The notes under the pieces: model-generated
The model's database searches: none
Told to the model about the DNA's origin: nothing
Seen by the model: the letters and a program-made list of their open reading frames with translations, nothing else
Source: Candidatus Gastranaerophilales bacterium
GTDB lineage: Bacteria; Cyanobacteriota; Vampirovibrionia; Gastranaerophilales; Gastranaerophilaceae
Reading direction: 5' to 3'
NCBI GenBank assembly: GCA_944323685.1
Contig: CALUTJ010000003.1
Location: 67,342 to 131,341, forward strand
DNA length: 64,000 bases
Shown here: piece after piece, positions 2,158 through 64,000 of the stretch
How the letters are laid out: each line of letters starts with the position of its first letter
Position numbering within the stretch: position 1 is the stretch's first letter
Translations under genes and position numbers: made by a program

Positions 2158-2850
2158 GCGGATTTCCGTACGGACGACACGACCGAAGGGAGTTAGTCCG
2201 GGGAGCGAGGTATGAAGTGAGCACTTGCGTAAGCAATGTGAACGACAATACCGAGCGAGAAGGAAATCCAAGACGCGGATTTGCCTTCTTTTGCCGTTGA
2301 GCTATAGCGAAACGTGCAAAATGGCTTCACGAAAAAATCATTAGTGTTGCTTGTCTTTATTAATCTGTAAATAGTGAATAGTGCGGGCACGGAGTCGAGG
2401 CTTAAAAAGCCGAGCGAGTGCCCATGTGAACAAGGTTGATGGAGTTGAGAATTTTTAGAATAAAAATTCGAAACGGAATACTAAACCTTGTGAACGCCAA
2501 TAATCCAAGAGGCTGATTTCCGGACGGGTGCAACCCGGGGAGCTAGGACATCGAGCTGGCTTGTGCAAAGCACAAAAGGTGAAACTATCCGAGCGAGAAG
2601 GAAATCCAAGACGCGGATTTGTCTTCTTTTGCCGTTGAGTTATAGCGAAACGTGCAAAATGGCTTCACGAAAAAATCATTAGTGTTGCTTGTCTTTATTA
2701 ATCTGTAAATAGTGAATAGTGAATAGTGCGGGCACGGAGTCGAGGCTTAAAAAGCCGCGCGAGTGTCCATTTGAACAAGGTTAATGGAGTTGAGAATTTT
2801 TAGAAATAAAAATTCGAAACGGAATGCTAAACCTTGTGAACACCAATAAT
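2158..2850 (+). repeat. tandem duplication of a ~340-nt GC-rich structured unit (conserved cores 2251-2504 and 2589-2850)
   Basis: Hand alignment: the 254-nt core repeats with about 9 substitutions/indels (one is a 7-nt GAATAGT duplication). Divergent ~85-nt linkers both begin GATTTCCG. Contains several perfect hairpins. Confidence 0.85.
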
Positions 2851-4466
2851 TAAAGATTTTTTAAGTCTTTTTGTGCGCTTAAAGTAACCTGTTTTACCCC
2901 GAATTTTGATTTTAAAAATCCCAGCATGTTAGGAGTCAAAACATTCGCACTGCAAAAAGGAAGATAAATATTTTTCACCCCTAGGCATCTCAAATTGAAC
3001 AAATGAGATATGGTATGTAGATTGCAGGTCGTGATAAAAACGCTCACGGGGAATTTTTCAAAATCAATTTGTTTTTTAATATGAGATAATATTTTATAAA
3101 TCAAAGAAGAGTTAAAAAATGAGTCAAAGCTTAAAATATTGTCATTTTTAGAGGTCATGAGTGTGCTTATTACAAAATAATCAGACGGCAAATATTTTTC
3201 CAGCTCATTAAAATATTCGCTGCGCAAAGCCGCGTGGTTTAACAATCCTATAATTATAAGGTGTTTTATTTCTTTATTTTTTATTTTTTCAATAAGCCTA
3301 TCTATTTTTTGCATAACCGCATCTTCGTCATAACCGACTTTTATGCTTGTTATGCCTTGATTATTGCTATAGCCTTCGTTTTCTGAGGCATTTTGTATCA
3401 GTTTTGAAAAATCGTTGTTTTCAATACTTGTCATTCCTTTACCTGCGATAAGGTTGGTTGTAAAAATTCTGCCGCGATACAGTCTGTCTAAAAGGTATTG
3501 AAAGTTTCTTATAACAAGTACAGGCCCTTTAAAAGAAGTAAAATCATAATAGACATTATCCAGCGAGGTCTGGTAGTGGCCTTTAAGGTTAGGATAATTT
3601 TTAAATTTGGGGTAAGCGTGTGCGACAATGAGACCATTATGGGTGTAAACGTTTATATCACTTCCTTGCAAAGCTTCAAGAAGATTTTGAAAATCCTTCA
3701 AGTTTTGTCCCGAAACCAGTATGGCTTTGCCTTTGTCGACACCTATCTTTACATCGTTCAGAGATATTTTCCCGTAGTATTTTTCTTTAAACTGATGCAG
3801 TTTTTTATAAATCTGAAAATTTATCTTAGCAAAATCATTGATTTTTCTAAGCAGTTTAGATTCTTGCATAGTTGAAAAATTTAAACTGTTAAACAGTTTT
3901 AAAATGGCATCTTGTTCTTCAGTGCAGTCGTCTGTGTAGGACTTAAGTTCTTCAAGCCTTATGCTCGCGCTTTTTATCAGATTCAATATAATTTCGTAAA
4001 TGTTTTTTACGTCGGTATTTAAAATTTTATTTCTTAAAATAACTTGCTGTTCGCCCTGATTAATTATTGAGGCTATGTTAAATTTTTCAAAATTTATATT
4101 TGATTTTAAAATCTGGCAATCAATATTTTCTTTATCACAAATTGAAACATAAGAATTCTTAACCGCTTCTTTTTCGGCATGAATTTTATAAATCAAATCT
4201 TCAAACTCTTTGCGGTCAAACTCATAGCCGATTATCACAACTGACAGGTAGTTTATGATACTGTTTTTGAGTTTAAGGTTTTCATAGCCGAGTTCTTGCA
4301 TTTTTATGTAATAGTAAGTAATTTGTTTTAACTCGTAAAGCCAGACTTCCATAAGAGAATAAACAATGGGGTCTGCGCTGCAAAAGCCCTCTATTGCGCA
4401 ATCGTTGTAAGACATATTATCTCCGTAATTCAGCCCAAAATTCTGCTCTGAAAATTTGTTAAACAT
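2850..4466 (-). CDS. hybrid-cluster protein (prismane/Hcp) family homologue, apparently lacking cluster ligands
   Basis: GKAILVSGQNLKDFQNLLEALQGSDINVYTHNGLIVAHAYPKF and C-terminal LGVKNIYLPFCSANVLTPNMLGFLKSKFGV align to Hcp motifs recalled from E. coli Hcp. The canonical Cys/His/Glu ligand positions are substituted. Confidence 0.6.
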   Translation of the reverse strand: MFNKFSEQNFGLNYGDNMSYNDCAIEGFCSADPIVYSLMEVWLYELKQITYYYIKMQELGYENLKLKNSIINYLSVVIIGYEFDRKEFEDLIYKIHAEKEAVKNSYVSICDKENIDCQILKSNINFEKFNIASIINQGEQQVILRNKILNTDVKNIYEIILNLIKSASIRLEELKSYTDDCTEEQDAILKLFNSLNFSTMQESKLLRKINDFAKINFQIYKKLHQFKEKYYGKISLNDVKIGVDKGKAILVSGQNLKDFQNLLEALQGSDINVYTHNGLIVAHAYPKFKNYPNLKGHYQTSLDNVYYDFTSFKGPVLVIRNFQYLLDRLYRGRIFTTNLIAGKGMTSIENNDFSKLIQNASENEGYSNNQGITSIKVGYDEDAVMQKIDRLIEKIKNKEIKHLIIIGLLNHAALRSEYFNELEKYLPSDYFVISTLMTSKNDNILSFDSFFNSSLIYKILSHIKKQIDFEKFPVSVFITTCNLHTISHLFNLRCLGVKNIYLPFCSANVLTPNMLGFLKSKFGVKQVTLSAQKDLKNL

Positions 4467-4615
4467 ATATGCATGTTAAACAAATTAAATGTTTTCACCA
4501 TTAACCGAAAGAGCTATTAAAAAATAATTCGTATAACAGCATATTAAGACTATGCGAATATAACAAAATATATAGTATAATTTGTTATCAAATAACAAAA
4601 CAAAAAGGATACTCT

Positions 4616-7264
4616 ATGAAAAATATAAAAAATGCTGCGGTTTTAGTTTTTGTAGTGTTGATAAGCGTTGTTCAATGCGTATTTGCACAGGATTATTCAA
4701 CCTTCAAACTTGATAACGGACAAACAGTAATAATTAAAGAAGTCCACGACAATCCTATTGTCACAATAGATACCTGGATAAAAACAGGTTCCATTAATGA
4801 AAATGATACTAATAACGGTGTTGCACATTTTTTGGAACACCTGTTTTTTAAAGGAACAACCAAACACCCGACCGGTGAGTTTGACAAAATACTGGAATCT
4901 AAAGGCGCAATGACAAATGCCGCAACAAGCAAGGATTTTACTCATTATTACATAACGATTCCGTCAAAATACTTTAATCTTGCAATGGATTTGCATGCCG
5001 ATATGCTTTTAAACCCGCTGATACCGAGCAATGAGCTTGAGAAAGAGAGGAAAGTTGTTATAGAAGAAATTTCTAAAACTAACGACAACCCCGAAAACAA
5101 ACTCTACGAAAATATGATTAAATCACTGTATCAAAATCACCCTTATAAAAGACAGGTTATCGGTAAAAAAGAAATCATTGAAAATATTCCGAGAGAAGAA
5201 ATTCTCTATTTTTATAATACATGGTACAATCCGTCCAATATGATTACTGTTGTTGTGGGCGATGTTAATACACAGGAAGCCTTAAATGTAATAAAACACG
5301 ATTTCAATAAAAAAGAGGCTAAAAAAACAAAACTGCCAGAGTACAAAATAGACAAATATCTTGAAAAAACTAAAGAAGTAACCGCACGTGACAAAGTAAA
5401 AACGGGTTATATGATGATAGGTTTTAGAGGAGTTGCGCAGCAAGACCGCAATGACGGATATGCTCTTGATGTTTTGTCTACTATTCTCGGTGACGGACGT
5501 TCCTCAAAATTGTATCAATCCGTAAAAGAACAACAGCAGCTTGCATACAGCATCGGTGCCGGACACGCTTCAATGAAAGATGACAGTATATTGTATGTAA
5601 GTGCCAACTTTGTTCCTATAAACAAGGAAAAAGTTAAAAAAGCCGTGTTTGATGAAATAGAAAAAATACGCAACGGCAATTTTGACGAAAAAGATATACA
5701 AAAAGCCAAAAGTATCATTGAGCGCGATACTTTCTATTCAAGAGAATCCACCTCGAATATTGCCAATGAATTAGGCTACACAACGCTTGTCTACGGCGAT
5801 TCCAAATACTATGACGAATATATAGAAAACATAAAGAAAGTTACAAAAAATGACATAATAAGGGTTGCTAAAAAATATCTCAACCCCAATCAGGCTGCTA
5901 TTTCAATTATGCTGCCCGATGAATCCTGTCAGGATAACACAAAACCCATAAGCAGTATAAAAAAACATACTCACCCTGATAAACCCGTTCTTATTAAAAA
6001 AGACAAAACAATATCTCAATATAAACTGCCTTGTAACATAAATCTTGTAATCAACCACAATCACCTTAATGATATAGTGGCTATGACTATTTATTCCAAA
6101 GGCGGCAACTACATTGAAAAAAAAGCAGGACTCGGCACGGTAACGGCATCTTTGATGTTAAAAGGTACAAAAAAATATTCATCGCTTGATTTGTCTCAAA
6201 CAATGGAACAAAACGGTATAATAATTGAACCGTCTAACAGCTCCGATATGTTTTCTGTTTCAGTAAAAACTACCAAAAAAGATTTGCCGTTAACGTTTGA
6301 ACTCTTAAACGAAATAGTCAATAACGCATCTTTAGATGACCAACAGCTTGAAAAAGTAAAAAAAGAAAAATTACAGGCGATTCAAAGAAACAGGGATTTG
6401 CCCGTCAATGTTGCGCTGGAAGAGTTTAAAACAGTTATCTGGCAAGGAACACCTTACGGTAATACCGGTAATATTCTCGAAAAAACAATACCGACCATAA
6501 CTCATAAAGATGTGACAGAATATTATAACGGTCTTTTCTATCCTGAAAATCTTGTAATATCCGTTAACGGTAATGTTAATGATAACGAGATAATCAGTGC
6601 AATTACAAATATTTTTTGTGTAGATAAACAGGCAAATGTACAAAAATTTGATTACAATACTTACAAAAATGTGTTCAAACCCTTGAACGCAACTAAAAAA
6701 GTTACAAAAGCAAAAGATGTACAGGCAGCCTGGATTGTAATGGGCTGGTTGACTGACGGAGTTGAAAACAAAAAAGATGTTGCAACTTTGCAGGTTATTG
6801 ATTCTATTTTAGGCGGAGGAATGAGTTCCCGCCTGTTCAACAGGCTGCGTGATGAGCAGGGGTTGGCTTATCAGGTGGGTTCAAGCTTTGCAGCCAATGT
6901 AAATAAGGGGATATTCGCTCTTTATATAGGTACAAATCCTGCAACGGCCCAGCACTCTAAAAATGAGCTGTTAAAACAGGTGAATTTATTGAAAAAAGAA
7001 TTTGTTTCGGACAGGGAGCTTCAAGAAGCAAAAGACAAAATACTCGGCAACTTTATTCTTTCTCAGGAAACAAATATGGAAAAAGCTTCGACTCTGGGCT
7101 GGTTTGAGTTGTCAGGCAGAGGATTCGGATATATAAATGAATTCCCTCAGCTTGTAAAAAGCGTAACAGCTACTGATATAATACGTGTAGCCAACAAATA
7201 TTTTGAACAGCCGTATGTGTACAGCGTGGTTGCTCCGCAAAACTGTTTAAAAAAGATAAAATAA
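4616..7264 (+). CDS. secreted M16-family zinc peptidase (two fused M16 units)
   Basis: N-terminal signal-like segment. HFLEHLFFKGT matches the inverted zinc motif HxxEH. The 882-aa length fits a double-module pitrilysin-like enzyme. Confidence 0.9.
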   Translation: MKNIKNAAVLVFVVLISVVQCVFAQDYSTFKLDNGQTVIIKEVHDNPIVTIDTWIKTGSINENDTNNGVAHFLEHLFFKGTTKHPTGEFDKILESKGAMTNAATSKDFTHYYITIPSKYFNLAMDLHADMLLNPLIPSNELEKERKVVIEEISKTNDNPENKLYENMIKSLYQNHPYKRQVIGKKEIIENIPREEILYFYNTWYNPSNMITVVVGDVNTQEALNVIKHDFNKKEAKKTKLPEYKIDKYLEKTKEVTARDKVKTGYMMIGFRGVAQQDRNDGYALDVLSTILGDGRSSKLYQSVKEQQQLAYSIGAGHASMKDDSILYVSANFVPINKEKVKKAVFDEIEKIRNGNFDEKDIQKAKSIIERDTFYSRESTSNIANELGYTTLVYGDSKYYDEYIENIKKVTKNDIIRVAKKYLNPNQAAISIMLPDESCQDNTKPISSIKKHTHPDKPVLIKKDKTISQYKLPCNINLVINHNHLNDIVAMTIYSKGGNYIEKKAGLGTVTASLMLKGTKKYSSLDLSQTMEQNGIIIEPSNSSDMFSVSVKTTKKDLPLTFELLNEIVNNASLDDQQLEKVKKEKLQAIQRNRDLPVNVALEEFKTVIWQGTPYGNTGNILEKTIPTITHKDVTEYYNGLFYPENLVISVNGNVNDNEIISAITNIFCVDKQANVQKFDYNTYKNVFKPLNATKKVTKAKDVQAAWIVMGWLTDGVENKKDVATLQVIDSILGGGMSSRLFNRLRDEQGLAYQVGSSFAANVNKGIFALYIGTNPATAQHSKNELLKQVNLLKKEFVSDRELQEAKDKILGNFILSQETNMEKASTLGWFELSGRGFGYINEFPQLVKSVTATDIIRVANKYFEQPYVYSVVAPQNCLKKIK

Positions 7265-13601: not shown

Positions 13602-14279
13602 ATGATATCGCTTCAATACATAGGGCATAGTGCGTTTTACATAAAAACAGGCGGTTACGGGATTTTAATCGATCCGTTTATAACCGGCAACCCTAAAGCC
13701 GTTTTTGATTTGAACAACAATATAATTACAAATATTTTTGTAACTCACGGACACGGTGATCACCTCGGTGATGCGATACCGTTATCAAAATCACACAATG
13801 CTGAGATTTGTACAATTTTTGAGCTGGCTAACTACTGTATGTCAAAAGGTGCGAAAGCTCACGGTGCAGGTATGGGCGGGAAAATAGATTTCCCCTGGGG
13901 AAGCGCAAGGCTTTTGCCTGCTTTTCACAGCAGCTCTACCCCTGAAGGTTATTATGCAGGCATGCCTGCTTCTATTCTGTTTGACATAAACGGAACAAAA
14001 ATTTATCACGCAGGTGACACCTGTTTGAATTCAGAAATGAAAACTGTCGGGGAAATTTACAAACCGGATATTGCTCTTTTGCCGATAGGTTCTAACTATA
14101 CAATGGATATCGAAGAAGCAGTTGTTGCTTCAATCTGGCTTAATGCGAAGGAAGTTATCCCTATGCACTATAATACGTTTGATTTGATTAAAGCTGATGC
14201 GCTCAAGTTCAAAACGTCAATAGAAGCTCTGAATAAAAAATGTACGATTCTTAACCCCGGTGAAGGAATAAATCTTTGA
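13602..14279 (+). CDS. UPF0173-type metallo-beta-lactamase-fold hydrolase
   Basis: IGHSAFYIKT...ILIDPF...THGHGDHLGD contains the HxHxDH motif. Confidence 0.85.
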   Translation: MISLQYIGHSAFYIKTGGYGILIDPFITGNPKAVFDLNNNIITNIFVTHGHGDHLGDAIPLSKSHNAEICTIFELANYCMSKGAKAHGAGMGGKIDFPWGSARLLPAFHSSSTPEGYYAGMPASILFDINGTKIYHAGDTCLNSEMKTVGEIYKPDIALLPIGSNYTMDIEEAVVASIWLNAKEVIPMHYNTFDLIKADALKFKTSIEALNKKCTILNPGEGINL

Positions 14280-14293
14280 TAAACAATAAAAAA

Positions 14294-14415
14294 TGTCCGA
14301 GAAAAATTCGTGATAAGGAGCAAAGCGACGTGAACGAATTTTTGGAGTGTCACATTGAAAAGGTGAGCAGTGACGGCTCGAAGGCTCGAGGCGGCAACTG
14401 CGACACTAGATTAGA
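14294..14415 (+). repeat. 122-nt interspersed GC-rich repeat, copy A
   Basis: 97-98% identical to 18392-18513. 96% identical to the reverse complement of 52669-52790. Confidence 0.9.
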
Positions 14416-14428
14416 AAAAGCTGCATTG

Positions 14429-15388
14429 ATGATTATCCCGACAGGAGTCGGAGCATCTATCGGCGGTTATGCCGGTGATGCAAGTCTTTATGCACAAAAA
14501 ATAGCCAAACATATTCCTCTGATTGTCAATCCCAATATTGTCAATGCTGCGGTGTTTTCAGGTATTACAGAAAACATGTTTTATGTGGAAGGATTTGCGA
14601 TAGAAGAGTTTGTCAAAGGCAATATCGCTCTTGTTCCTTCAAAAAACAACAAAATAGGAATTATCTTTGACAGAGCAATCAGTCAAAGTGTTTTAAATAT
14701 ACATATAAACACGATAAATGCTCTTAAAACTGTTTACGGCATTGATGTAACAGGCTATGAAATCACTGAAGAAAGTGCGGGGGTTGAATTTTTTACAACT
14801 CAAAGCGGTGCTTCATCAGGCAGGGTAAATAACCCGCAAACTCTTTTAAAAGCCGGGCAAAAACTTTTGGATAACGGAGCTAATGCGCTGGCTGTTGTTT
14901 GTGCGTTTGAAGAACCGCCTGAAGATGATTACGAAAACGGGGACGGTGTTGATATTGTCGGCGGTGTTGAGGCTGTAATATCTCATTATCTGACTAAAAA
15001 GCTTATGTGCCCCTGTGTACACGCACCCGCATTTGAAGATGTAACAATTACGGACAAAAAAGTTAATCCTAAAGTCAGTGCGGAATATATTACCCCAACG
15101 TTTTTGCCATGTCTTTTGTTCGGGTTAAAAAACGCTCCGATGCTTGTAGATTTGAACAATACAAAACCTCCGGCAAATAGCATTACCGTGAAAGATTTGC
15201 ATTCTGTATCAGTGCCTTATAATGCCCTCGGGTCAAGTGTTGTTATGGATGCTCTTGCTGCTGATATTCCTGTTTATGCAGTAAAAGAAAACTCTACTGT
15301 CTTAAATATCGACAAAAGTATTCTTAATTTATCTGAAATTAAGGAATTGCAAACATACGAAGATTACGTAAAAGTACTGGATAATTAA
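14429..15388 (+). CDS. DUF3326-like protein (cyanobacteria/plant-type family, from memory)
   Basis: MIIPTGVGASIGGYAGDA... The track ORF starts at TTG 14276, but its first 51 codons are the intergenic repeat, which is non-coding in the other copies. ATG 14429 is therefore preferred. Confidence 0.6.
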   Translation: MIIPTGVGASIGGYAGDASLYAQKIAKHIPLIVNPNIVNAAVFSGITENMFYVEGFAIEEFVKGNIALVPSKNNKIGIIFDRAISQSVLNIHINTINALKTVYGIDVTGYEITEESAGVEFFTTQSGASSGRVNNPQTLLKAGQKLLDNGANALAVVCAFEEPPEDDYENGDGVDIVGGVEAVISHYLTKKLMCPCVHAPAFEDVTITDKKVNPKVSAEYITPTFLPCLLFGLKNAPMLVDLNNTKPPANSITVKDLHSVSVPYNALGSSVVMDALAADIPVYAVKENSTVLNIDKSILNLSEIKELQTYEDYVKVLDN

Positions 15389-18344: not shown

Positions 18345-18373
18345 TTTAGATTTAAACTAAACTGCGATACAAT
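18345..18373 (+). promoter_or_regulatory. sigma-70-like promoter candidate upstream of repeat copy B / tRNA-Arg
   Basis: TTTAGA-17 nt-TACAAT. The predicted start is about 12 nt before the repeat. Confidence 0.35.
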
Positions 18374-18391
18374 ATATTTCAAAACAATAGT

Positions 18392-18513
18392 TGTCCGAGA
18401 AAAATTCGTGATAAGGAGCAAAGCGACGTGAACGAATTTTTGGAGTGATACATTGAAAAGGTGAGCAGTGACGGCTCGAATGCTCGAGGCGGCAACTGCG
18501 ACACTAGATTAGA
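18392..18513 (+). repeat. 122-nt interspersed GC-rich repeat, copy B (tRNA leader)
   Basis: Differs from copy A at 3 positions. Ends 5 nt before the tRNA-Arg 5' end. Confidence 0.9.
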
Positions 18514-18518
18514 TATAT

Positions 18519-18592
18519 GTGCCCGTAGCTCAGCCGGATAGAGCGTCAGCCTCCGAAGCTGAAGGTCGGGGGTTCGAATCTCCCCGGGCATA
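18519..18592 (+). tRNA. tRNA-Arg (anticodon CCG)
   Basis: Hand-folded cloverleaf: acceptor GTGCCCG/CGGGCAT (G1-U72), D arm GCTC/GAGC, anticodon arm TCAGC-CTCCGAA-GCTGA, T arm GGGGG-TTCGAAT-CTCCC. CCA is not encoded. Confidence 0.9.
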
Positions 18593-18659
18593 TTTTTAAT
18601 AAATATAATAAATAAATTTTATATTATAATTGGAAATATAAAATCAACAGGAATAAATT

Positions 18660-19994
18660 ATGAGCACAAAACCCATTGTCGCCGTTGTAGGAAGACCAAA
18701 CGTAGGAAAATCAACATTCGTAAACAGAATTGTCGGCTCCCGTCAATCAATTGTCGATGACCAACCTGGTGTTACCCGCGACAGAATATATTTTGACGTA
18801 GAATGGCAAAACAAACAGTTTACCCTCATTGATACAGGCGGTATTATTCCCGGCGATGAGGACGAAATTATGCTCAATATTTTTACACAGGCAAAAGTAG
18901 CCTGTGATGAGGCGGATAAAATTATATTTCTTGTTGATGGCAAAGAAGGGATAAACCCTGTTGATTATGATATAGCTAATGTGTTGAGAAGAAGCAAAAA
19001 GCCTATTTATCTTGCTGTAAACAAAATTGATGCGCCCGAACATTTTAACAACATTGCAGATTTTTATGCACTGGCTGTTGGCGATCCGCATCCTATTTCT
19101 GCGTTGCATGGTTCCGGCGGAGTGGGTGATTTGTTAGAATCTATTACACAGGATTTTGTTGCCGACGAAAGCGTTACAGATGCTGATATTATAAAACTTG
19201 CAATTGTGGGCAAACCCAATGCGGGAAAATCTTCTATAATCAATGCCCTTTTAGGCGAGGAAAGAGTTATTGTAAGCGATGTATCAGGTACAACACGAGA
19301 CAGCATCGATTCTAAAGTTAAATACGAGGGTGAAGAGTTCATTCTTGTAGACACTGCCGGTATCAGAAAAAAAGCTAAAGTTGACTGGGGCGTTGAAAAA
19401 TTTGCCGTTGACAGAGCAATAAGAGCAATAAAAGATTGCGATATAGCAGTGCTTGTCATTGATGCTGTTGACGGTTTAACAGATCAGGACAAAAAGATAT
19501 CTCAAATTGTTGTCGAAGCAGGCAAAGGTCTGATTGTTGCTGTAAACAAATGGGATTTGATAGAGGACAAAGATAAATCAGACCCGACTGCAAAATATAA
19601 TCAAAAACTTATGCATGATGCTCCGTTCCTTGACTTTGCGCCCAAAATATTCATCAGCGCAAAAACTAAACAGCGTCTGGTTAATATTTATAAACAGGCA
19701 AAAGAAGTATACGCTCAGTGTACAAAAAGGGTTTCGACAAGTATTTTAAACAAAGTTCTTCTGGAAGCTATGGCAATGAACCCGCCTACAACCAAAAAAG
19801 GTAAAAAGCTGCGTGTTTATTATGCAACACAGGTGCGCACCGCTCCGCCTACCTTTATTTTGTTTGTTAATGACGAGGATCTTGTACAGGATAGCTATAA
19901 AAGATATCTCGAAAACAAAATGAGAGAAGCTTTTGGCTTTTTTGGCACGCCGGTTCGTATGTCATTTAGAGAACGCAAGGAAAAAAATAATTAA
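18660..19994 (+). CDS. der: ribosome-associated GTPase Der (EngA), double G-domain
   Basis: Two P-loops, GRPNVGKST and GKPNAGKSS. DTGG/DTAG and NKxD motifs. KH-like C-terminus. Confidence 0.95.
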   Translation: MSTKPIVAVVGRPNVGKSTFVNRIVGSRQSIVDDQPGVTRDRIYFDVEWQNKQFTLIDTGGIIPGDEDEIMLNIFTQAKVACDEADKIIFLVDGKEGINPVDYDIANVLRRSKKPIYLAVNKIDAPEHFNNIADFYALAVGDPHPISALHGSGGVGDLLESITQDFVADESVTDADIIKLAIVGKPNAGKSSIINALLGEERVIVSDVSGTTRDSIDSKVKYEGEEFILVDTAGIRKKAKVDWGVEKFAVDRAIRAIKDCDIAVLVIDAVDGLTDQDKKISQIVVEAGKGLIVAVNKWDLIEDKDKSDPTAKYNQKLMHDAPFLDFAPKIFISAKTKQRLVNIYKQAKEVYAQCTKRVSTSILNKVLLEAMAMNPPTTKKGKKLRVYYATQVRTAPPTFILFVNDEDLVQDSYKRYLENKMREAFGFFGTPVRMSFRERKEKNN

Positions 19995-45397: not shown

Positions 45398-47185
45398 ATG
45401 GACAGTTCAAAGTTAAGAAATATAGCCATCATTGCCCACGTTGACCACGGCAAAACAACGCTTGTGGATTGTATGTTAAAACAGTGCGGTGTATTCAGAC
45501 AGAATGAAGTTGTGCAGGAACGTGTTTTAGACAGCAATGATTTGGAACGTGAAAGAGGTATTACAATCCTTGCCAAAAACGTTTCGGTTCACTATAAAGG
45601 TTACAAAATCAACATTGTCGACACCCCGGGTCACGCGGATTTTGGCGGCGAGGTAGAGCGTGTTTTAGGCATGGTAGACGGCGCACTCCTAATCGTTGAT
45701 GCGGCAGAAGGCCCTATGCCCCAGACAAGATTTGTTCTGCAAAAAGCTCTTGAACTCGGCATAAGAGTTATTGTGGTTATAAACAAAATTGATAAACCGG
45801 CAGCAGACCCTGATGAAACATTGAACAAAGTATTCGACCTGTTTACGGAATTGACTGATGATGAGTATTTAATAGATTTTCCTGTTATTTATTCAAGCAG
45901 CCTGCACGGTTTTGCAAAAAAAGAACTTACAGACGAATCAAAAGACATCATACCTCTGCTGGATTCTATTATTGAAAATATTAAACCTCCGCTTGCCGAC
46001 GCAACAAAAGATTTGCAATTCCACGTAACAACACTGGATTATAACGAGTATGTCGGCAGAATTGCGATAGGCAGAATCGTTAACGGTTCAATTAAATCAC
46101 AGGAGATAGTCAGCCACATCCACACAGACGGCTCAATCACAAGAGGTAAAGTCGTTAAGCTGTTTGGTTTTGAAGATTTGGGGCGTGTTGAAATTAAAGA
46201 AGCGCATGCCGGAGATATTGTCGGCATAGCCGGTTTCCCCGATGTACAGATAGGTGAAACAATCGCATCTCTTGAAAACCCTCAGGCTTTGCCGTTGATA
46301 AAAATCGATGAACCTACTTTGCAGATGAATTTTTCTGTTAACAACAGTCCTTTTGCCGGTCAGGAGGGTAAATTTGTTACTTCAAGACAGTTGAGAAAAA
46401 GACTTTATCAGGAACTAGAGAAAAACGTATCTTTAAGAGTCGAAGATACAGATTCTACTGACGTTTTCAAAGTTTCAGGCAGGGGCGAGCTTCATCTGAG
46501 TATTCTTATTGAAACAATGCGCCGTGAAGGCTTTGAATTTCAGGTTTCTAAACCGGAAGTTATCTACAAAACCATTAATGAAGAAACTTACGAACCTTAT
46601 GAAGACCTGCTGATAGACGTTCCGGAAGAATGCGCCGGCGGATGTATTGAAAAACTTGCAGGCAGAAAAGGCGAAATGCTGGAAATGCAGGCAGTCGGGA
46701 CACGTTCTAAAATGAGATTTTTAATCCCGTCCAGAGGGTTAATCGGCTTTAGAGGCGAGTTCATCAGAATGACACGCGGTGAAGGTATCATGAACCATAC
46801 ATTTGCGGAATATAAACCATATGCCGGTGATATCAACCGCCAGAGAATGGGTTCTCTTATTGCACATGAAGAAGGCGAGGCAGTACCTTATGCTCTTGCT
46901 CAGTTTGAAGACAGAGGCGTGTTCTTTGTTACTCCTAAAACAAGAGTATACAGGGGTATGATTGTTGGCGAATGCAACCGTTCTCAGGATATTCCCGTTA
47001 ATGTGTGCAAAACTAAAAAACTTACAAATATGAGAACAGCCACAGCTGATGTTATGGTTACTCTGCAAGCCCCGAGAATACTTTCTCTTGAAGAGTGTCT
47101 TGAATATATCTCAGATGACGAGCTTGTGGAAGTTACGCCTAAAAATATCAGAATGAGAAAGTATGATCTTGTTAAGTTAAGATAG
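45398..47185 (+). CDS. typA: translational GTPase TypA/BipA
   Basis: RNIAIIAHVDHGKTTLVD, DTPGHADFGGEVER, NKIDK. 595 aa. Confidence 0.95.
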   Translation: MDSSKLRNIAIIAHVDHGKTTLVDCMLKQCGVFRQNEVVQERVLDSNDLERERGITILAKNVSVHYKGYKINIVDTPGHADFGGEVERVLGMVDGALLIVDAAEGPMPQTRFVLQKALELGIRVIVVINKIDKPAADPDETLNKVFDLFTELTDDEYLIDFPVIYSSSLHGFAKKELTDESKDIIPLLDSIIENIKPPLADATKDLQFHVTTLDYNEYVGRIAIGRIVNGSIKSQEIVSHIHTDGSITRGKVVKLFGFEDLGRVEIKEAHAGDIVGIAGFPDVQIGETIASLENPQALPLIKIDEPTLQMNFSVNNSPFAGQEGKFVTSRQLRKRLYQELEKNVSLRVEDTDSTDVFKVSGRGELHLSILIETMRREGFEFQVSKPEVIYKTINEETYEPYEDLLIDVPEECAGGCIEKLAGRKGEMLEMQAVGTRSKMRFLIPSRGLIGFRGEFIRMTRGEGIMNHTFAEYKPYAGDINRQRMGSLIAHEEGEAVPYALAQFEDRGVFFVTPKTRVYRGMIVGECNRSQDIPVNVCKTKKLTNMRTATADVMVTLQAPRILSLEECLEYISDDELVEVTPKNIRMRKYDLVKLR

Positions 47186-47359
47186 ACGTATAGATTATTA
47201 TTTAAGTTATTTTTGCGTGAAATTTGCTTCTACAGCAACTGTTGCTGTTACAGATGAGAATGGGTAGTCTAACAACAATTACAGCTATGAGCTTTAAGGT
47301 TACTGTGGGACAGTGAGAGCGCAAGTGCATTTAATCTCTGAAACTTTTTAATTGTTCTT

Positions 47360-48163
47360 TTAATCATTTGCGTTTAAAGTCGAGAACAGGGCATTTGCTT
47401 TTTCCAAAATTTCAGCTCTATAACTCATTATCTCATGAGTTTCCAAACCTAATTGTTCTTTAACCATATCCTCATCATACACATCAGGTTCATCATGTGC
47501 AAGGGCGTTAGCCAGATAAACAAGGGTTGCAACTTCCGGCATTGAAGAGGACATAGGATCGTGGTGGTACTTTATGCAGTTTGCAAGCATAACGGAAAGT
47601 TTCCATTTCTTTGCAAGCTGAAATCCGATATCTGCATGATTTGTTTGGAATACGGAATTTTCTGCTTCTATTATGTCTGTTCCGTATTTAACCATTTCTC
47701 TTACTCTTTGATAAGCCGTAGCATTACAAATATTAAGCAAAATTTTACCTATATCATGTAAAAAACCTATAGTAAAAGCGTCACCGGTGTCGGCCAGATC
47801 AACTTTTGACGCCAGTATTTCACAAGCAACGGCGCAGCGCAGAGAGTGTTTCCACATTTCTTTACCGCCGTTAGAGGTAAGCATTGGTTTCATTGCCACT
47901 GTTATAATTATATTTTTTGTTTGTGACATACCTAAAAGCGCTAATGCTTTTGACACTGATGTAATCTCTTGCGCAAATCCGTAATATGCCGAATTAACCA
48001 GTTTTAGCACCTGAGATGTTAAGGCTTGATCATAAGCCATGATTTCCCCGAGTTCTTTAGTGCCGGATTGGTCATCTTTAATTATACCAAGAGCCTTAAC
48101 TATAACATTTGGCATTGCGGGGATATCTTTTATTCTGTCTATAAACTCTTGAGCATTAGTCAT
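47360..48163 (-). CDS. HDOD-domain signalling protein
   Basis: IPAMPNVIVKALGIIKD...LTSQVLKLVNSAYYGF...GFLHDIGKILL. Confidence 0.8.
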   Translation of the reverse strand: MTNAQEFIDRIKDIPAMPNVIVKALGIIKDDQSGTKELGEIMAYDQALTSQVLKLVNSAYYGFAQEITSVSKALALLGMSQTKNIIITVAMKPMLTSNGGKEMWKHSLRCAVACEILASKVDLADTGDAFTIGFLHDIGKILLNICNATAYQRVREMVKYGTDIIEAENSVFQTNHADIGFQLAKKWKLSVMLANCIKYHHDPMSSSMPEVATLVYLANALAHDEPDVYDEDMVKEQLGLETHEIMSYRAEILEKANALFSTLNAND

Positions 48164-52567: not shown

Positions 52568-52623
52568 GTTTTTTATAAAAAAGGCGATGTGAGGTTTTTA
52601 CGTAACAACAAACATTAATAAGC

Positions 52624-52659
52624 AAAAACTCCTTTAGCAGAGTATGCAAAGGAGTTTTT
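52624..52659. terminator. bidirectional rho-independent terminator
   Basis: AAAAACTCCTTT-12 nt loop-AAAGGAGTTTTT. U-tracts are available on both strands. Confidence 0.8.
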
Positions 52660-52668
52660 GTTGTTATA

Positions 52669-52790
52669 TCTAATCTAGTGTCGCAGTTGCTGCCTCGAGC
52701 CTTCGAGCCGTCACTGCTCACCTTTTCAATGTGCCACCCCAAAAATTCGTTCACATCGCTTTGCTCCTTATCCCGAATTTTTCTCGGACA
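52669..52790 (-). repeat. 122-nt interspersed GC-rich repeat, copy C
   Basis: The reverse complement differs from copy A at 5 of 122 positions. It lies between the ftsB-like stop (52803) and the terminator. Confidence 0.9.
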
Positions 52791-60031: not shown

Positions 60032-60946
60032 TTATTTGGAGGATTTTTGCAAATTTTCAGGCAAATGAATTAAATTGCCGAGTTTTAAATCAAAGTCCTC
60101 CGGAGTAAAAATATGTGTACCTGAGGCGCTTGTAAAGGTCATTTCGCCAAAATATAATTTGTTGTCATTTTCATAAAAGTCAACTCTGACGAAAGGAAAA
60201 TCTTTTGACATAATATTTGCGAATTTGAGCATTTTTTCAAAATTATAAGGTTTAGCACAAGGAGAAAAGTTCTCGTATATGTGATTTTCTGATATTTTTT
60301 CTGGGACTAAATTCCAATTTATATCATATAAATTGCGCTTATGGTGCTTATATCTGTCTTTATCAACCCAGACATATTTAACTTCACCATTAAAACACAG
60401 GAATTTGTAGTCTTTTAAATCACCGTCATCAGCTTCGATATATTCTTCCGCAATGATTAGGGGTTTGATATTTCTATAGTGCGTTTCAAAAGACTTTAGC
60501 GAATAATCGGTGCGCAGCCATTTGTCAAAGTTTTTCTTTGCGGATTTTTTATCAAAACTGTTTTTATCCGTAACAATTATATTCCATGCGCTGCCATGGT
60601 TTGCTTTAAGTACAAACTTGTCAGGCAATTTGTCAAAATCTATATCGTCAAAGTTTTCCCAAACACCGAGAAGCGGGATAAGGTATTCTTCGCCGATTTT
60701 TTCTTTAACCCAATCACGCACAAGGTATTTGTCTGCGAGTTTTGTTTTTAATGGAGTTGAGTCGTACAGTTTAAGCCACTGTATTTTTTCGTTAAAAGTT
60801 TGTGGATTTTCAAGGTCTAACTGCTTACCCGTTTTATGAAAATAAAAATCTTTCAGGTATACGGGATAGCATTTAACAGGTACATATTTAAACAAAAAAG
60901 ATTTAAAAATTAATTTACGCAAAAGAGCACTGACTTCTTGTATCAA
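60032..60946 (-). CDS. TupA-like ATP-grasp protein (polysaccharide/teichuronopeptide-type modification)
   Basis: NPQTFNEKIQWLKLYD...VLKANHGS...DYKFLCFNGE...VDFYENDNKLYFGEMTF matches my memory of the ATPgrasp_TupA family. Confidence 0.7.
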   Translation of the reverse strand: MIQEVSALLRKLIFKSFLFKYVPVKCYPVYLKDFYFHKTGKQLDLENPQTFNEKIQWLKLYDSTPLKTKLADKYLVRDWVKEKIGEEYLIPLLGVWENFDDIDFDKLPDKFVLKANHGSAWNIIVTDKNSFDKKSAKKNFDKWLRTDYSLKSFETHYRNIKPLIIAEEYIEADDGDLKDYKFLCFNGEVKYVWVDKDRYKHHKRNLYDINWNLVPEKISENHIYENFSPCAKPYNFEKMLKFANIMSKDFPFVRVDFYENDNKLYFGEMTFTSASGTHIFTPEDFDLKLGNLIHLPENLQKSSK

Positions 60947-61070
60947 AGATTTCCCCCCCTACTATAAAAATCCTTTATATGACAAAATTTATACAGCTAT
61001 ATTAGCATATATATGTTAAAAATAAAATTATTTGTCCGCATACGGAAATCACCGCCCGCAAAGAATAATT

Positions 61071-61247
61071 TCTAATCTGGTGTCGCAGTTGCCGCCTTGA
61101 GCCTTCGAGCCGTCACTGCTCACCTTTGCCTTCTTTTTCGGCTGAACTGTGGTGAAGCCTGAAAAATGGCTTCACTATGTGAACAATGTGCCACTCCAAA
61201 AATTCGTTCACATCGTTTTGCTCCTTATCACGAATTTTTCTCGGACA
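61071..61247 (-). repeat. 122-nt interspersed repeat, copy D, carrying a 57-nt insertion (61127-61183)
   Basis: The flanks align to copies A-C. The insertion TTGCCTTCTTTTTCGGCTGAACTGTGGTGAAGCCTGAAAAATGGCTTCAC... resembles 2281-2335 of the tandem repeat. Confidence 0.85.
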
Positions 61248-61474
61248 TATTAAGCTGTTATTTTATAGGATATTTTGCAGACCACAAAAATAGTCAGTCA
61301 TGCAGAACTACTCTACGAGTACCCTCCCTTGTAAGCCTCATTATATTCGGTAACAAGAGGAGCTGCAAGTTCAGCGACGACCGGGTGGGGTTGTGAAACC
61401 CACTAAAACATGTCCAAACGTCATCCTTAGAAGTGAGCGAAGCGACCTCATGAGTTTTATAAAAATATTTTACA

Positions 61475-62345: not shown

Positions 62346-64000
62346 TTATATTTTTGTTAAATCAATCAATTCACCTAATTTAAAATTAAATATGTCTGGA
62401 GTAAAGATATGTGTACCTGATGCGCTTGTAAAAGTCATTTCTCCAAAATATAATTTGTTGTCATTTTCATAAAAGTCAACTCTAACGAAAGGAAAACCTT
62501 TTGACATAATATTTGCAAATTTGAGCATTTTTTCAAAATTATAAGGTTTAGCACAAGGAGAAAAGTTGTCATATACATGTTTTTCTGATATTTTTTCTGG
62601 GACTAAATTCCAATTTATATCATATAAATTGCGCTTATGGTTTTTATATCTGTCTTTATCAACCCAGACATATTTAACTTCACCGCTAAAACACAGGAAT
62701 TTGTAGTCTTTTAAATCACCGTCATCAGCTTCAATATATTCTTCCGCAATTATTAATGGTTTGATATTTTTATAATGTAATTCTAAGCCGCCTAACAGTG
62801 CATAATTTGTATTTAACCATTTTTTTATTTTACGTTTGGCTAATTTTTTATCAAATTTGTTTTTATCAGTTACAATAATATTCCAGCTGCTTCCGTGATT
62901 TGCTTTCAGCACAAACTTGTCAGGCAATTTGTCAAAATCTATATCGTCAAAGTTTTTCCAAACACCGAGAAGCGGGATAAGGTATTCTTCGCCGATTTTT
63001 TCTTTAACCCAATCACGCACAAGGAATTTGTCTGCGAGTTTTGTTTTTAATGGAGTTGAGTCGTACAGTTTTAGCCACTGTATTTTTTCGTTAAAAGTTT
63101 GCGGATTTTCAAGGTTAAGCATTTTTCCGGTTGTAAAATAAAACCAATCTTTTAAGTATTCTTGATACATACATTCCGGTATGTATTTTAAATATTTGGT
63201 ACGATTTATTTTTATTTTTATTCCAAATATTGTAATTACTTTATAAATATTTTCTTTTTTCATTGAGAATATTTTTTGAATAAAAGATTTAATTTTTGAA
63301 GGTTTCTTTATAATTTTTTTGTAAAATTTATCTGGATTATTAATTATCAAATCTAAATTTTCTATATCTTTTTTGCTAAATAGGTTTTTATCTATTTCTC
63401 CAGTGTTTTTAGCTAATTTATAATCCTCGCTAAACTTTTTTATAAATTCTTTTTTATATTTATTATCAATTCTGCTTAATGTAAATAAGTAATTACCGTA
63501 TCTTTTAAATTGATAAACAGGTATGTACTTTTTTAATTCATTTTTGCTATTAATAATGTTTCTGATGAAGTCATATTCCTCACACATACAATAAATTTTA
63601 GACTTATCATTTACAGAAGAATTCGGATTATCCTTTCTTTTCATATAGAATGGTTTATCCAAAAAATAGACTTTTTGTGCAAACATAAAGGTTTGGAACC
63701 AAAAGCCGTTATCTTGAAAAGATGCCCCTGGAGTTTCATTATGTCTTATATTATTTTTTTTCAAAAAATCAAGATTATAAATTCCTGTCCAGGTATTCAT
63801 CGTTAAATTAAATAATTTTAAATTTTCTGAAGGGGTTAAAATTTTATTATAAAAATTAACAGTTTTATCTATTTGAGCATAATAAAATGTTTTATTTTTA
63901 TCTCCATCAAACCTGTAAAAATCAGCTTTAATAAAGTCTAAATCCAGTTCTTTAGCTTTGTTATACAATGTTTCATACATATTTAATTTAATGTAGTCAT
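62346..64000 (-). CDS. fusion protein: family-2 glycosyltransferase (N-terminus beyond window) plus TupA-like ATP-grasp
   Basis: The reading frame stays open upstream of ATG 63980 to the window edge (…DYIKLNMYETLY…, typical of the region after the GT2 DxD motif). The C-terminal 300 aa are about 90% identical to ORF 60032..60946. Confidence 0.7.
   Translation of the reverse strand, partial: DYIKLNMYETLYNKAKELDLDFIKADFYRFDGDKNKTFYYAQIDKTVNFYNKILTPSENLKLFNLTMNTWTGIYNLDFLKKNNIRHNETPGASFQDNGFWFQTFMFAQKVYFLDKPFYMKRKDNPNSSVNDKSKIYCMCEEYDFIRNIINSKNELKKYIPVYQFKRYGNYLFTLSRIDNKYKKEFIKKFSEDYKLAKNTGEIDKNLFSKKDIENLDLIINNPDKFYKKIIKKPSKIKSFIQKIFSMKKENIYKVITIFGIKIKINRTKYLKYIPECMYQEYLKDWFYFTTGKMLNLENPQTFNEKIQWLKLYDSTPLKTKLADKFLVRDWVKEKIGEEYLIPLLGVWKNFDDIDFDKLPDKFVLKANHGSSWNIIVTDKNKFDKKLAKRKIKKWLNTNYALLGGLELHYKNIKPLIIAEEYIEADDGDLKDYKFLCFSGEVKYVWVDKDRYKNHKRNLYDINWNLVPEKISEKHVYDNFSPCAKPYNFEKMLKFANIMSKGFPFVRVDFYENDNKLYFGEMTFTSASGTHIFTPDIFNFKLGELIDLTKI

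Follow-up and report, generated by a model that had tools for sequence, protein, structure and literature searches.

Repeat copies in the window

The DNA studied here is a 64,000-nt stretch of contig CALUTJ010000003.1 from a Candidatus Gastranaerophilales bacterium (hereafter, the window). It carries four copies, named A to D, of a repeat element of 122 or 123 nt (Table 1). The stop codon of an MBL-fold gene lies 14 nt 5′ of copy A, and the ATG at 14429 of a DUF3326 gene 12 nt 3′ of it; the other copies lie next to a tRNA gene (B), behind the dcw block (C) and between two minus-strand genes (D). An earlier note on the same DNA had judged the repeat an RNA-level module. The evidence presented below suggests instead that it is probably a selfish, non-coding, non-autonomous family of mobile DNA of Candidatus Gastranaerophilales (Melainabacteria/Vampirovibrionia).

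A 54-nt probe, with up to 3 mismatches allowed, matched exactly four sites in the window, against none expected from 100 shuffles. The same four copies were recovered by a repeat finder and by MAFFT alignment, and a covariance model run with its filters off found no fifth copy in the window. The four positions reported in the earlier note are thus borne out. All four copies are intergenic and, with a GC content of 48% against 36.7% for the window, they are as GC-rich as had been described.

Over 122 positions, A differs from B at 3, from C at 5 and from D, outside the insert of the latter, at 5, while B and C differ at 7. The previous estimate of 3–5 differences was therefore slightly low, the range being 3–7. 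The insertion in copy D, formerly given as 57 nt, is in fact a replacement of one A by 56 nt, a net gain of 55 nt. The same composite form was seen again in another species (loci L017, L013, L004 and L034).

Table 1. Coordinates of the element copies, their parts and adjoining features (window positions unless a locus is named)
Feature	Position	Strand	Description
Copy A	14294..14416	+	122/123-nt element; covariance model 156 bits
H1 in copy A	14302..14343	+	10-bp stem AAAAATTCGT/ACGAATTTTT; in other copies, nested inserts lie in the loop
3′ domain in copy A	14362..14407	+	outer helix GGUG/CACU around variable hairpin H3; 5 pairs changed on both sides
DUF3326 coding sequence, likely true extent	14429..15388	+	the profile matches the ATG-14429 product from residue 1 on
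Copy B	18392..18514	+	in-frame TGA; 3′ edge 3–4 nt from tRNA-Arg(CCG)
tRNA-Arg(CCG)	18518..18593	+	directly 3′ of copy B
Terminator-like hairpin	52620..52655	-	ACTCCTTT / 12-nt loop / AAAGGAGT, then T-run; downstream of copy C; read from the sequence
Copy C	52668..52790	-	begins 12 nt past the stop of a DivIC-like gene, the last in the dcw block
Copy D	61070..61247	-	composite form with internal insert, between two minus-strand genes
Nested module in copy D	61128..61183	-	56 nt; similar over ~80% of its length to part of the tandem repeat at 2280–2330
CTCTGCCGARCAAAA/TTTTGYGAGAGG module	L002, L013 (e.g. 4602–4645), L044, L048, L053, L057, L058, L061, L063, L012		mini-module in or beside element copies

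Insertion as an exact unit, also within genes

In the metagenome-assembled genome (MAG) CALUVO01, the element lies within two long open reading frames (ORFs), one encoding a UbiA prenyltransferase and the other a PMT_2-like membrane protein. The UbiA product with the element has 340 residues (L009, P0020), and one 97%-identical relative shares the 41 added residues, which sit between DYKKY and LKSQKK. Two homologues (P0021 and P0022), 96% identical outside the insert, are 299 residues long and lack exactly those 41; most of the other ~115 homologues listed have 299–306 residues. The same 41 residues are added to the PMT_2-like protein, which is 634 residues long as opposed to 590–593 in its five closest orthologues.

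At the nucleotide level, the UbiA site without the element reads ...AAATAT/CTGAAATC... and the filled one ...AAATAT/123 nt/CTGAAATC...; the bases to the right of the break in the empty site begin with CTGAAA and are the same in the filled site. In the PMT_2-like gene, ...AAATAT/ATTGCA... in the empty site corresponds to ...AAATAT/123 nt/ATTAAA... in the filled one. Both pairs display an exact gain of 123 nt, with an ambiguity of at most 1–2 nt. The presence or absence of the element between close orthologues, at sites without homology to it, shows that DNA was inserted.

These in-frame insertions of 41 codons, absent from close orthologues, mean that the former preference for an RNA module over a DNA transposon was the wrong way round. 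The earlier note had also regarded copies inside coding sequences as contrary to its view, and two such in-frame insertions have now been verified. A further copy (L033, 7133–7331), truncated at position 96 and on the opposite strand, adjoins the final codons of an EPSP synthase gene. It replaces the last residues of the enzyme and lengthens the ORF by ~60 residues. Overall, in-gene copies make up 2–3 of about 60. Here and below, counts of the family, of neighbours and of orientation refer to sampled pieces of 2–14 kb around copies, ~0.45 Mb in total.

Insertion 3′ of an AT-rich W-A-R-W-W motif is preferred, the motif itself not being fixed. Among 49 non-redundant 5′ flanks, the base at position -4 is A in 41, that at -3 is A or G in 41, and A or T occupies -2 in 41 and -1 in 46. 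Both verified insertions follow AAATAT, and the element's own 3′ tip (TAGAT) fits the target pattern as well. Target duplication was not detected: the preceding base equals the last base of the element in 23 of 37 copies (Fisher p = 0.14). Models with a duplication of 1 nt, of 2 nt (AT) or of TA were rejected against the two empty sites and the 37 copies.

Of the element's six frames a single one is open, so in-gene survivors are expected in exactly that orientation and frame. The earlier statement that no reading frame is conserved stands as regards the stop in copy B and the single open frame; its claim that the A-versus-C changes are all nonsynonymous was mistaken, as 2 of the 5 (CGT>CGG and GAC>GAT) are synonymous. 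The open frame does inflate ORF 14276..15388, as had been proposed, since the DUF3326 match starts only at the first residue of the shorter product. Public gene calls list the inflated form, with 370 residues. When the 41-residue peptide was compared with 5.8 billion proteins, only 19 short orphan ORFs of 37–72 residues were returned. The element explains both the inflated DUF3326 call and these orphan "proteins".

Ends and predicted secondary structure

The unit extends from TGTCCGAG to GATTAGA(T). In 39 of 49 non-redundant ends GATTAGA is followed by T, which makes the inserted unit effectively 123 nt long. Terminal inverted repeats were not found: the tips TGTCCGAG and GATTAGAT are not complementary, and the repeat finder gave whole-copy matches only. 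The lack of both terminal inverted repeats and target duplications, first remarked on in the window copies, therefore holds on 37–49 copies.

The consensus structure consists of hairpin H1 and a 3′ domain, each ~8 nt from a tip, with an 18-nt linker between them. H1 is a 10-bp hairpin at element positions 9–50 with a 22-nt loop. Its stem had been recognized before and is real; in copy C a T18G change leaves 9 bp. The CTCGA/TCGAG hairpin, reported as intact in copies A to C and disrupted in D, was confirmed too, with a single mismatch (G95A) in D. An outer GUGUC/GACAC helix, which appeared in a single-sequence fold, was rejected as its 5′ side varies without compensation, and GGUG/CACU was preferred.

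The stems contain compensatory changes, in line with the covariation that the earlier note had proposed to look for. In a structure-blind alignment of 16 copies, compared with 500 shuffles, 95.4% of cells pair versus 90.0% in the shuffles, none of which (0/500) scored as high. Cells changed on both sides numbered 23 versus 6.5, and the covariation score was 0.167 as compared with 0.011–0.045 when the partners were slid. In longer relatives, the compensatory H1 arms AAAATTTTGC/GCAAAATTTT replace AAAAATTCGT/ACGAATTTTT; in other subfamilies, the whole H3 stem is swapped for an unrelated sequence with the pairing kept.

One strand is clearly the structured one. The written (top) strand folds 5.4–7.2 kcal/mol better than its complement in five subfamilies, and with RNA parameters the values are -38.1 versus -26.8 kcal/mol.

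Some variants have additional hairpin modules, placed in the H1 loop, after position ~53–64 (the form of copy D), or in the H3 loop. A mini-module composed of CTCTGCCGARCAAAA, a variable hairpin and TTTTGYGAGAGG was observed 10 times, always in or beside element copies. It sits in the loop of either hairpin, and its inner stem differs among copies while pairing is kept.

Distribution and conservation of the family

One genome per species was scanned with a 19-mer taken from the 3′ half of the element. The 27 low-GC loci that it matched all belong to Candidatus Gastranaerophilales or to unnamed gut MAGs: 17 matches fell in CASFCQ01, and others in CALUVO01, CALUSA01, CALVEJ01, CASFNW01 and CALVCQ01. 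Another 11 matches, in high-GC sequences, were dismissed as chance. Scanning metagenome contigs for a pattern of the 5′ end gave a further 24 loci, from the human gut, whose subfamilies are more diverged. The covariance model yielded 58 matches in 51 sampled loci, which represent at least six Gastranaerophilales MAGs as well as gut metagenomes and do not include the window's own genome. Contigs often terminate within the element, as is expected of a high-copy repeat.

On the sequences compared, the element is more conserved than the genes across these lineages. Gene identity to the window is 81–96% in CASFCQ01, where element copies are 94–98% identical to those of the window. In the OGOC01 contigs, the genes are just 65–76% identical, and the subfamily found there has tips and a 5′ domain nearly unchanged relative to the window copies.

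Rfam 15, searched over the window, copy A and the region of copy D at gathering and permissive thresholds, gave no relevant match, which answers the question of known RNA families raised in the earlier note. The only gathering-level match in the window was tRNA-Arg, and at E<=10 copy A drew merely chance matches to snoRNAs and small RNAs (sRNAs) far below threshold. There was likewise no match in phage and plasmid collections (blastn) or in one pattern scan of viral contigs. No account of such an element was found in the literature on repeats in Melainabacteria, and we therefore rate it as a new family among the small non-autonomous bacterial repeats. It is a previously undescribed repeat family of uncultured human-gut Gastranaerophilales.

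Variation among strains of the same species

Strains of the window's species were represented by contigs from other samples that encode identical flanking proteins. The copy at site A was found in 8 strains, two of which have internal deletions of 19 and 6 nt; the 19-nt deletion removes the 5′ arm of H1. At site C, some strains have the simple form of the element and others an insert of the D type. Insert-bearing versions of this site have in one case lost the 3′ end of the element together with the terminator, and in another acquired a partial duplication. The interchange of simple and insert-bearing forms suggests that copies recombine or undergo gene conversion with one another.

At site B, two loci (L070, 1050–1380, and L069, which corresponds to window positions 18392–18660) differ beyond the copy: in L070, an ApbA-like gene takes the place of tRNA-Arg and EngA. 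The breakpoint lies at the 3′ edge of copy B, within the common ATA that follows the element. This switch is either a rearrangement, mediated by the repeat, or a chimeric assembly.

We also considered an empty site between sister species near 47.2 kb, which proved uninformative as the spacers are unrelated. The gene that ends at 47185 is followed by a spacer unrelated to that of its 96%-identical orthologue in L001, and the latter spacer holds a composite copy of the element.

Orientation relative to genes and replication

The earlier note had described the copies as always co-oriented with local transcription. Convergent and divergent contexts carry no information on this point, and our counts rest on our own ORF calls; copy D was re-scored, the adjoining plus-strand ORF being a shadow of a TupA-like gene. 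Of 24 copies between same-strand neighbours, 16 point the same way as both genes and 8 the opposite way (two-sided binomial p about 0.15), so the rule does not hold. The co-orientation of all four window copies is best read as chance. A copy in L030 (1000–1208), 13 nt upstream of tRNA-Glu(CTC) and in the same orientation, resembles the arrangement of copy B and tRNA-Arg.

In the window, the cumulative GC skew peaks and changes sign at ~46000–48000, where the genes switch from mostly plus to mostly minus strand. The flip may mark a replication terminus or be a plain gene-strand effect. The written strand of the element is on the G-rich strand in 4/4 window copies, on either side of this switch near 47 kb. 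Suggestive as this is, the larger sample gives little sign of a replication-linked orientation: over 60 copies the written strand is on the locally G-rich strand in 32 and on the C-rich strand in 28, a comparison that is noisy on 8-kb pieces.

Nature of the element

The element inserts as an exact 123-nt unit 3′ of an AT-rich motif, and its copies are found mostly in short intergenic spacers. Insertions in genes survive only in the open orientation and frame, where the host protein gains a peptide of 41 residues. Later on, copies decay by small deletions, take up nested hairpin modules in the loops and trade sequence among themselves. An enzyme supplied in trans may recognise the folded written strand by its conserved ends and its pair of subterminal hairpins.

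Transcription is almost certain for some copies: A is part of an operon, and C is flanked by a stop codon and the terminator-like hairpin. With that hairpin downstream of it, copy C falls into the 3′ untranslated region of the dcw transcript; the consensus scan missed the hairpin because its loop exceeds 8 nt. Where a copy lies in a tRNA leader, in a 3′ untranslated region or within an operon, RNA effects are probably side effects of where it landed and not what the family exists for.

Several observations weigh against a selfish mobile element. In every sampled strain of the same species that was assembled through them, all four sites are filled, so recent movement is documented only in the sister lineage. 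No mobilising gene was found: there is no multi-copy ORF near the copies, and the Pfam matches checked are ordinary genes. Nor did the ~0.45 Mb of sampled loci contain pairs of ends more than 350 nt apart, as a longer element would have. IS200/IS605 elements use a strict tetra- or pentanucleotide, whereas the target motif here is degenerate, and orientation showed no link to local GC skew in the comparison on 8-kb pieces, which is noisy. Finally, the high conservation, the covariation with G-U pairs and the 2:1 lean towards co-orientation also fit a selected RNA. The sole four-member paralogue cluster near copies was considered as a partner transposase and rejected, as it encodes a LuxR-type response regulator.

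A sharper form of the mobile-DNA explanation would make the element an ends-only (PATE-type) derivative of IS200/IS605 or the REPIN-like partner of a domesticated RAYT. A Y1 HUH transposase would move top-strand single-stranded DNA, read the two subterminal hairpins and paste the unit 3′ of a short motif. We hold this form tentatively, as rather unlikely. The absence of both terminal inverted repeats and target duplication would fit such a system, as would the two different hairpins predicted ~8 nt from the tips on one strand only, the insertion 3′ of a preferred motif that the 3′ tip also fits, and the G-rich-strand placement of the four window copies on both sides of the skew switch. Over the 60 copies, however, the 32:28 split argues against the last point; instead of a fixed tetranucleotide, the motif is W-A-R-W-W; no Y1/HUH gene was seen in the sampled pieces, and no ORF checked is a transposase. 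The element is not an inverted REP doublet either.

It is improbable, in our estimation, that the element is an RNA-level module, whose transcript would serve as an sRNA or, within mRNAs and tRNA precursors, as an element of processing or stability. The far better folding of the written strand, seen in all five subfamilies, speaks for such a role, and so do the compensatory changes and G-U pairs in the stems and the high conservation of unpaired segments where genes are only 65–76% identical. The contexts are suitable as well: A is inside an operon, C precedes a terminator-like hairpin, and B and the L030 copy lie 3–13 nt upstream of tRNAs. Copy B moreover stands between promoter-like hexamers and tRNA-Arg, and the 16:8 lean is towards co-orientation. 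Against this, 8 of the 24 informative copies are antisense to both neighbours, copies occur in frame within two coding sequences and one at the 3′ end of the EPSP synthase gene, and presence differs between 96%-identical orthologues. Strains tolerate the loss of the 5′ arm of H1 (the 19-nt deletion) and of the 3′ end of the element, and no Rfam family matches, even at E<=10.

With regard to copy B, the promoter-like hexamers were located by a consensus scan at 18345–18378, where they adjoin the copy on its upstream side. A promoter inside the copy (TTGAAA-N17-TCGAAT), picked out by eye, was missed by the scan, which favours the sites just upstream.

We give equally little credence to an undescribed mobilisation system of Melainabacteria, of which the family would be the visible part and in which a single-copy, possibly domesticated host enzyme would copy a folded single strand of DNA or RNA. 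It would explain why the ends and the fold are near-identical where genes are only 65–76% identical. On this explanation, the open frame would have been shaped by selection for tolerated gene insertions.

Very improbable is spread through RNA, that is, a non-coding retroelement that is transcribed and folded and that a reverse transcriptase supplied in trans would copy back into DNA. The strand-specific structure with G-U pairs, the mild excess of copies co-oriented with transcription and the absence of DNA-transposon hallmarks would suit it. Neither a reverse transcriptase nor a poly-A-like tail, a 5′ truncation series or a target duplication was observed, however, and both tips are precisely conserved in full-length copies with both ends recovered. 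We know of no bacterial precedent for RNA-mediated spread of such an element, which also counts against it.

A coding mini-module, with the 41-residue peptide CPRKIRDKEQSDVNEFLECHIEKVSSDGSKARGGNCDTRL(D/E) as the selected product, is effectively refuted: one consensus frame is open and is read through in two host proteins, but copy B has a stop, deletions shift the frame in L005 and L074, most copies are intergenic and many antisense to their neighbours, 5.8 billion proteins give just the 19 short orphan ORFs, and the H3 region is swapped in subfamilies with the pairing kept and the peptide lost.

Other repeats and features of the window

Apart from the element, the window contains two tandem GC-rich units of ~340 nt each (2251–2856), 93–98% identical, between a flagellin gene (1199–2047) and a prismane-family gene (2850–4466). 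About 50 nt of this tandem repeat (2280–2330) are 80% identical to the nested module of copy D. The units had no Rfam match (2040–2870 searched) and no further copy in the sampled loci.

The hexamer GTGAAC shows no overall enrichment in the window (18 occurrences versus 22.9 expected). Half of these (9/18) are within GC-rich repeats that make up ~2% of the sequence, at 2238–2841, 14330, 18428, 52749–52754 and 61179–61211. The same hexamer is present again in nested modules of other loci. A ATTTCCGTA-like motif near copy D was not above chance.

Copy D and a 272-residue gene without a confident family are flanked by two TupA-like ATP-grasp genes (60032–60946 and 62346–63980). Their repeats (60063–60797 and 62359–63096) include 300-nt stretches that are 88–91% identical, and the pair resembles a recent local duplication. 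Two more GC-rich, apparently non-coding segments, at 61290–61450 and 47200–47340, are unique among the window and the sampled loci.

Implications and comparison with known systems

The element accounts for recurrent contig breaks in Gastranaerophilales MAGs and for inflated or spurious ORF calls. It is also a clear case, outside Rickettsia, of selfish DNA tolerated in frame within enzymes, and it supplies natural pairs of alleles with and without the insert in which the accommodation of 41 residues can be studied. Its conserved, asymmetric layout of two hairpins, with neither inverted repeats nor target duplication, offers a handle toward the mobilising enzyme in an uncultured sister lineage of Cyanobacteria; the element would gain in interest if complete genomes show no conventional transposase alongside it. 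The deletions at site A, the exchange of forms at site C and the breakpoint at the boundary of site B make the copies usable as strain markers.

[quoted passage not shown] Like the Correia, ERIC, BOX, RUP and cyanobacterial MITE families, the element is small, non-coding and multi-copy, and it also has nested modules. MITEs are, however, defined by terminal inverted repeats and target duplications, both of which we tested for and found absent.

The REPIN-RAYT system comprises short, mostly extragenic hairpin repeats, for which movement in trans by a single-copy IS200-like enzyme has been proposed (PMC3116915). The element shares these three traits of the repeats, and REPINs, too, cluster and nest (PMC3116915). 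REPINs differ in being inverted doublets of a ~20–40-nt REP that form one long hairpin. Both the folds and the consensus structure of our element give two unrelated hairpins and a linker, without this symmetry, and no RAYT gene for it was identified in the sampled pieces.

Members of the IS200/IS605 family lack inverted repeats and target duplication, have hairpins at both ends and are inserted 3′ of a short motif (PMC7290912). PATEs resemble the element in all of this: no terminal inverted repeats, no target duplication, near-end hairpins on one strand and insertion 3′ of a motif. The differences are that neither a cognate TnpA nor a full-length element was found in the sampled pieces, that the motif is degenerate and that no replication-strand bias was detected.

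Rickettsia palindromic elements (RPEs) are also inserted in frame inside metabolic genes, to which they add a conserved peptide (PMC10969869). Both they and our element are dispersed, hairpin-forming repeats of ~100–150 bp with no known transposase, found between genes and in frame in unrelated genes (PMC10969869). The likeness is one of behaviour; the host phylum is unrelated. In-gene copies, 2–3 of about 60 here, reach nearly half in some RPE families, and an RPE is one palindrome whereas the element is asymmetric with two different hairpins. In behaviour the element comes closest to the RPEs, and in architecture to an ends-only element of the IS200/IS605 type.

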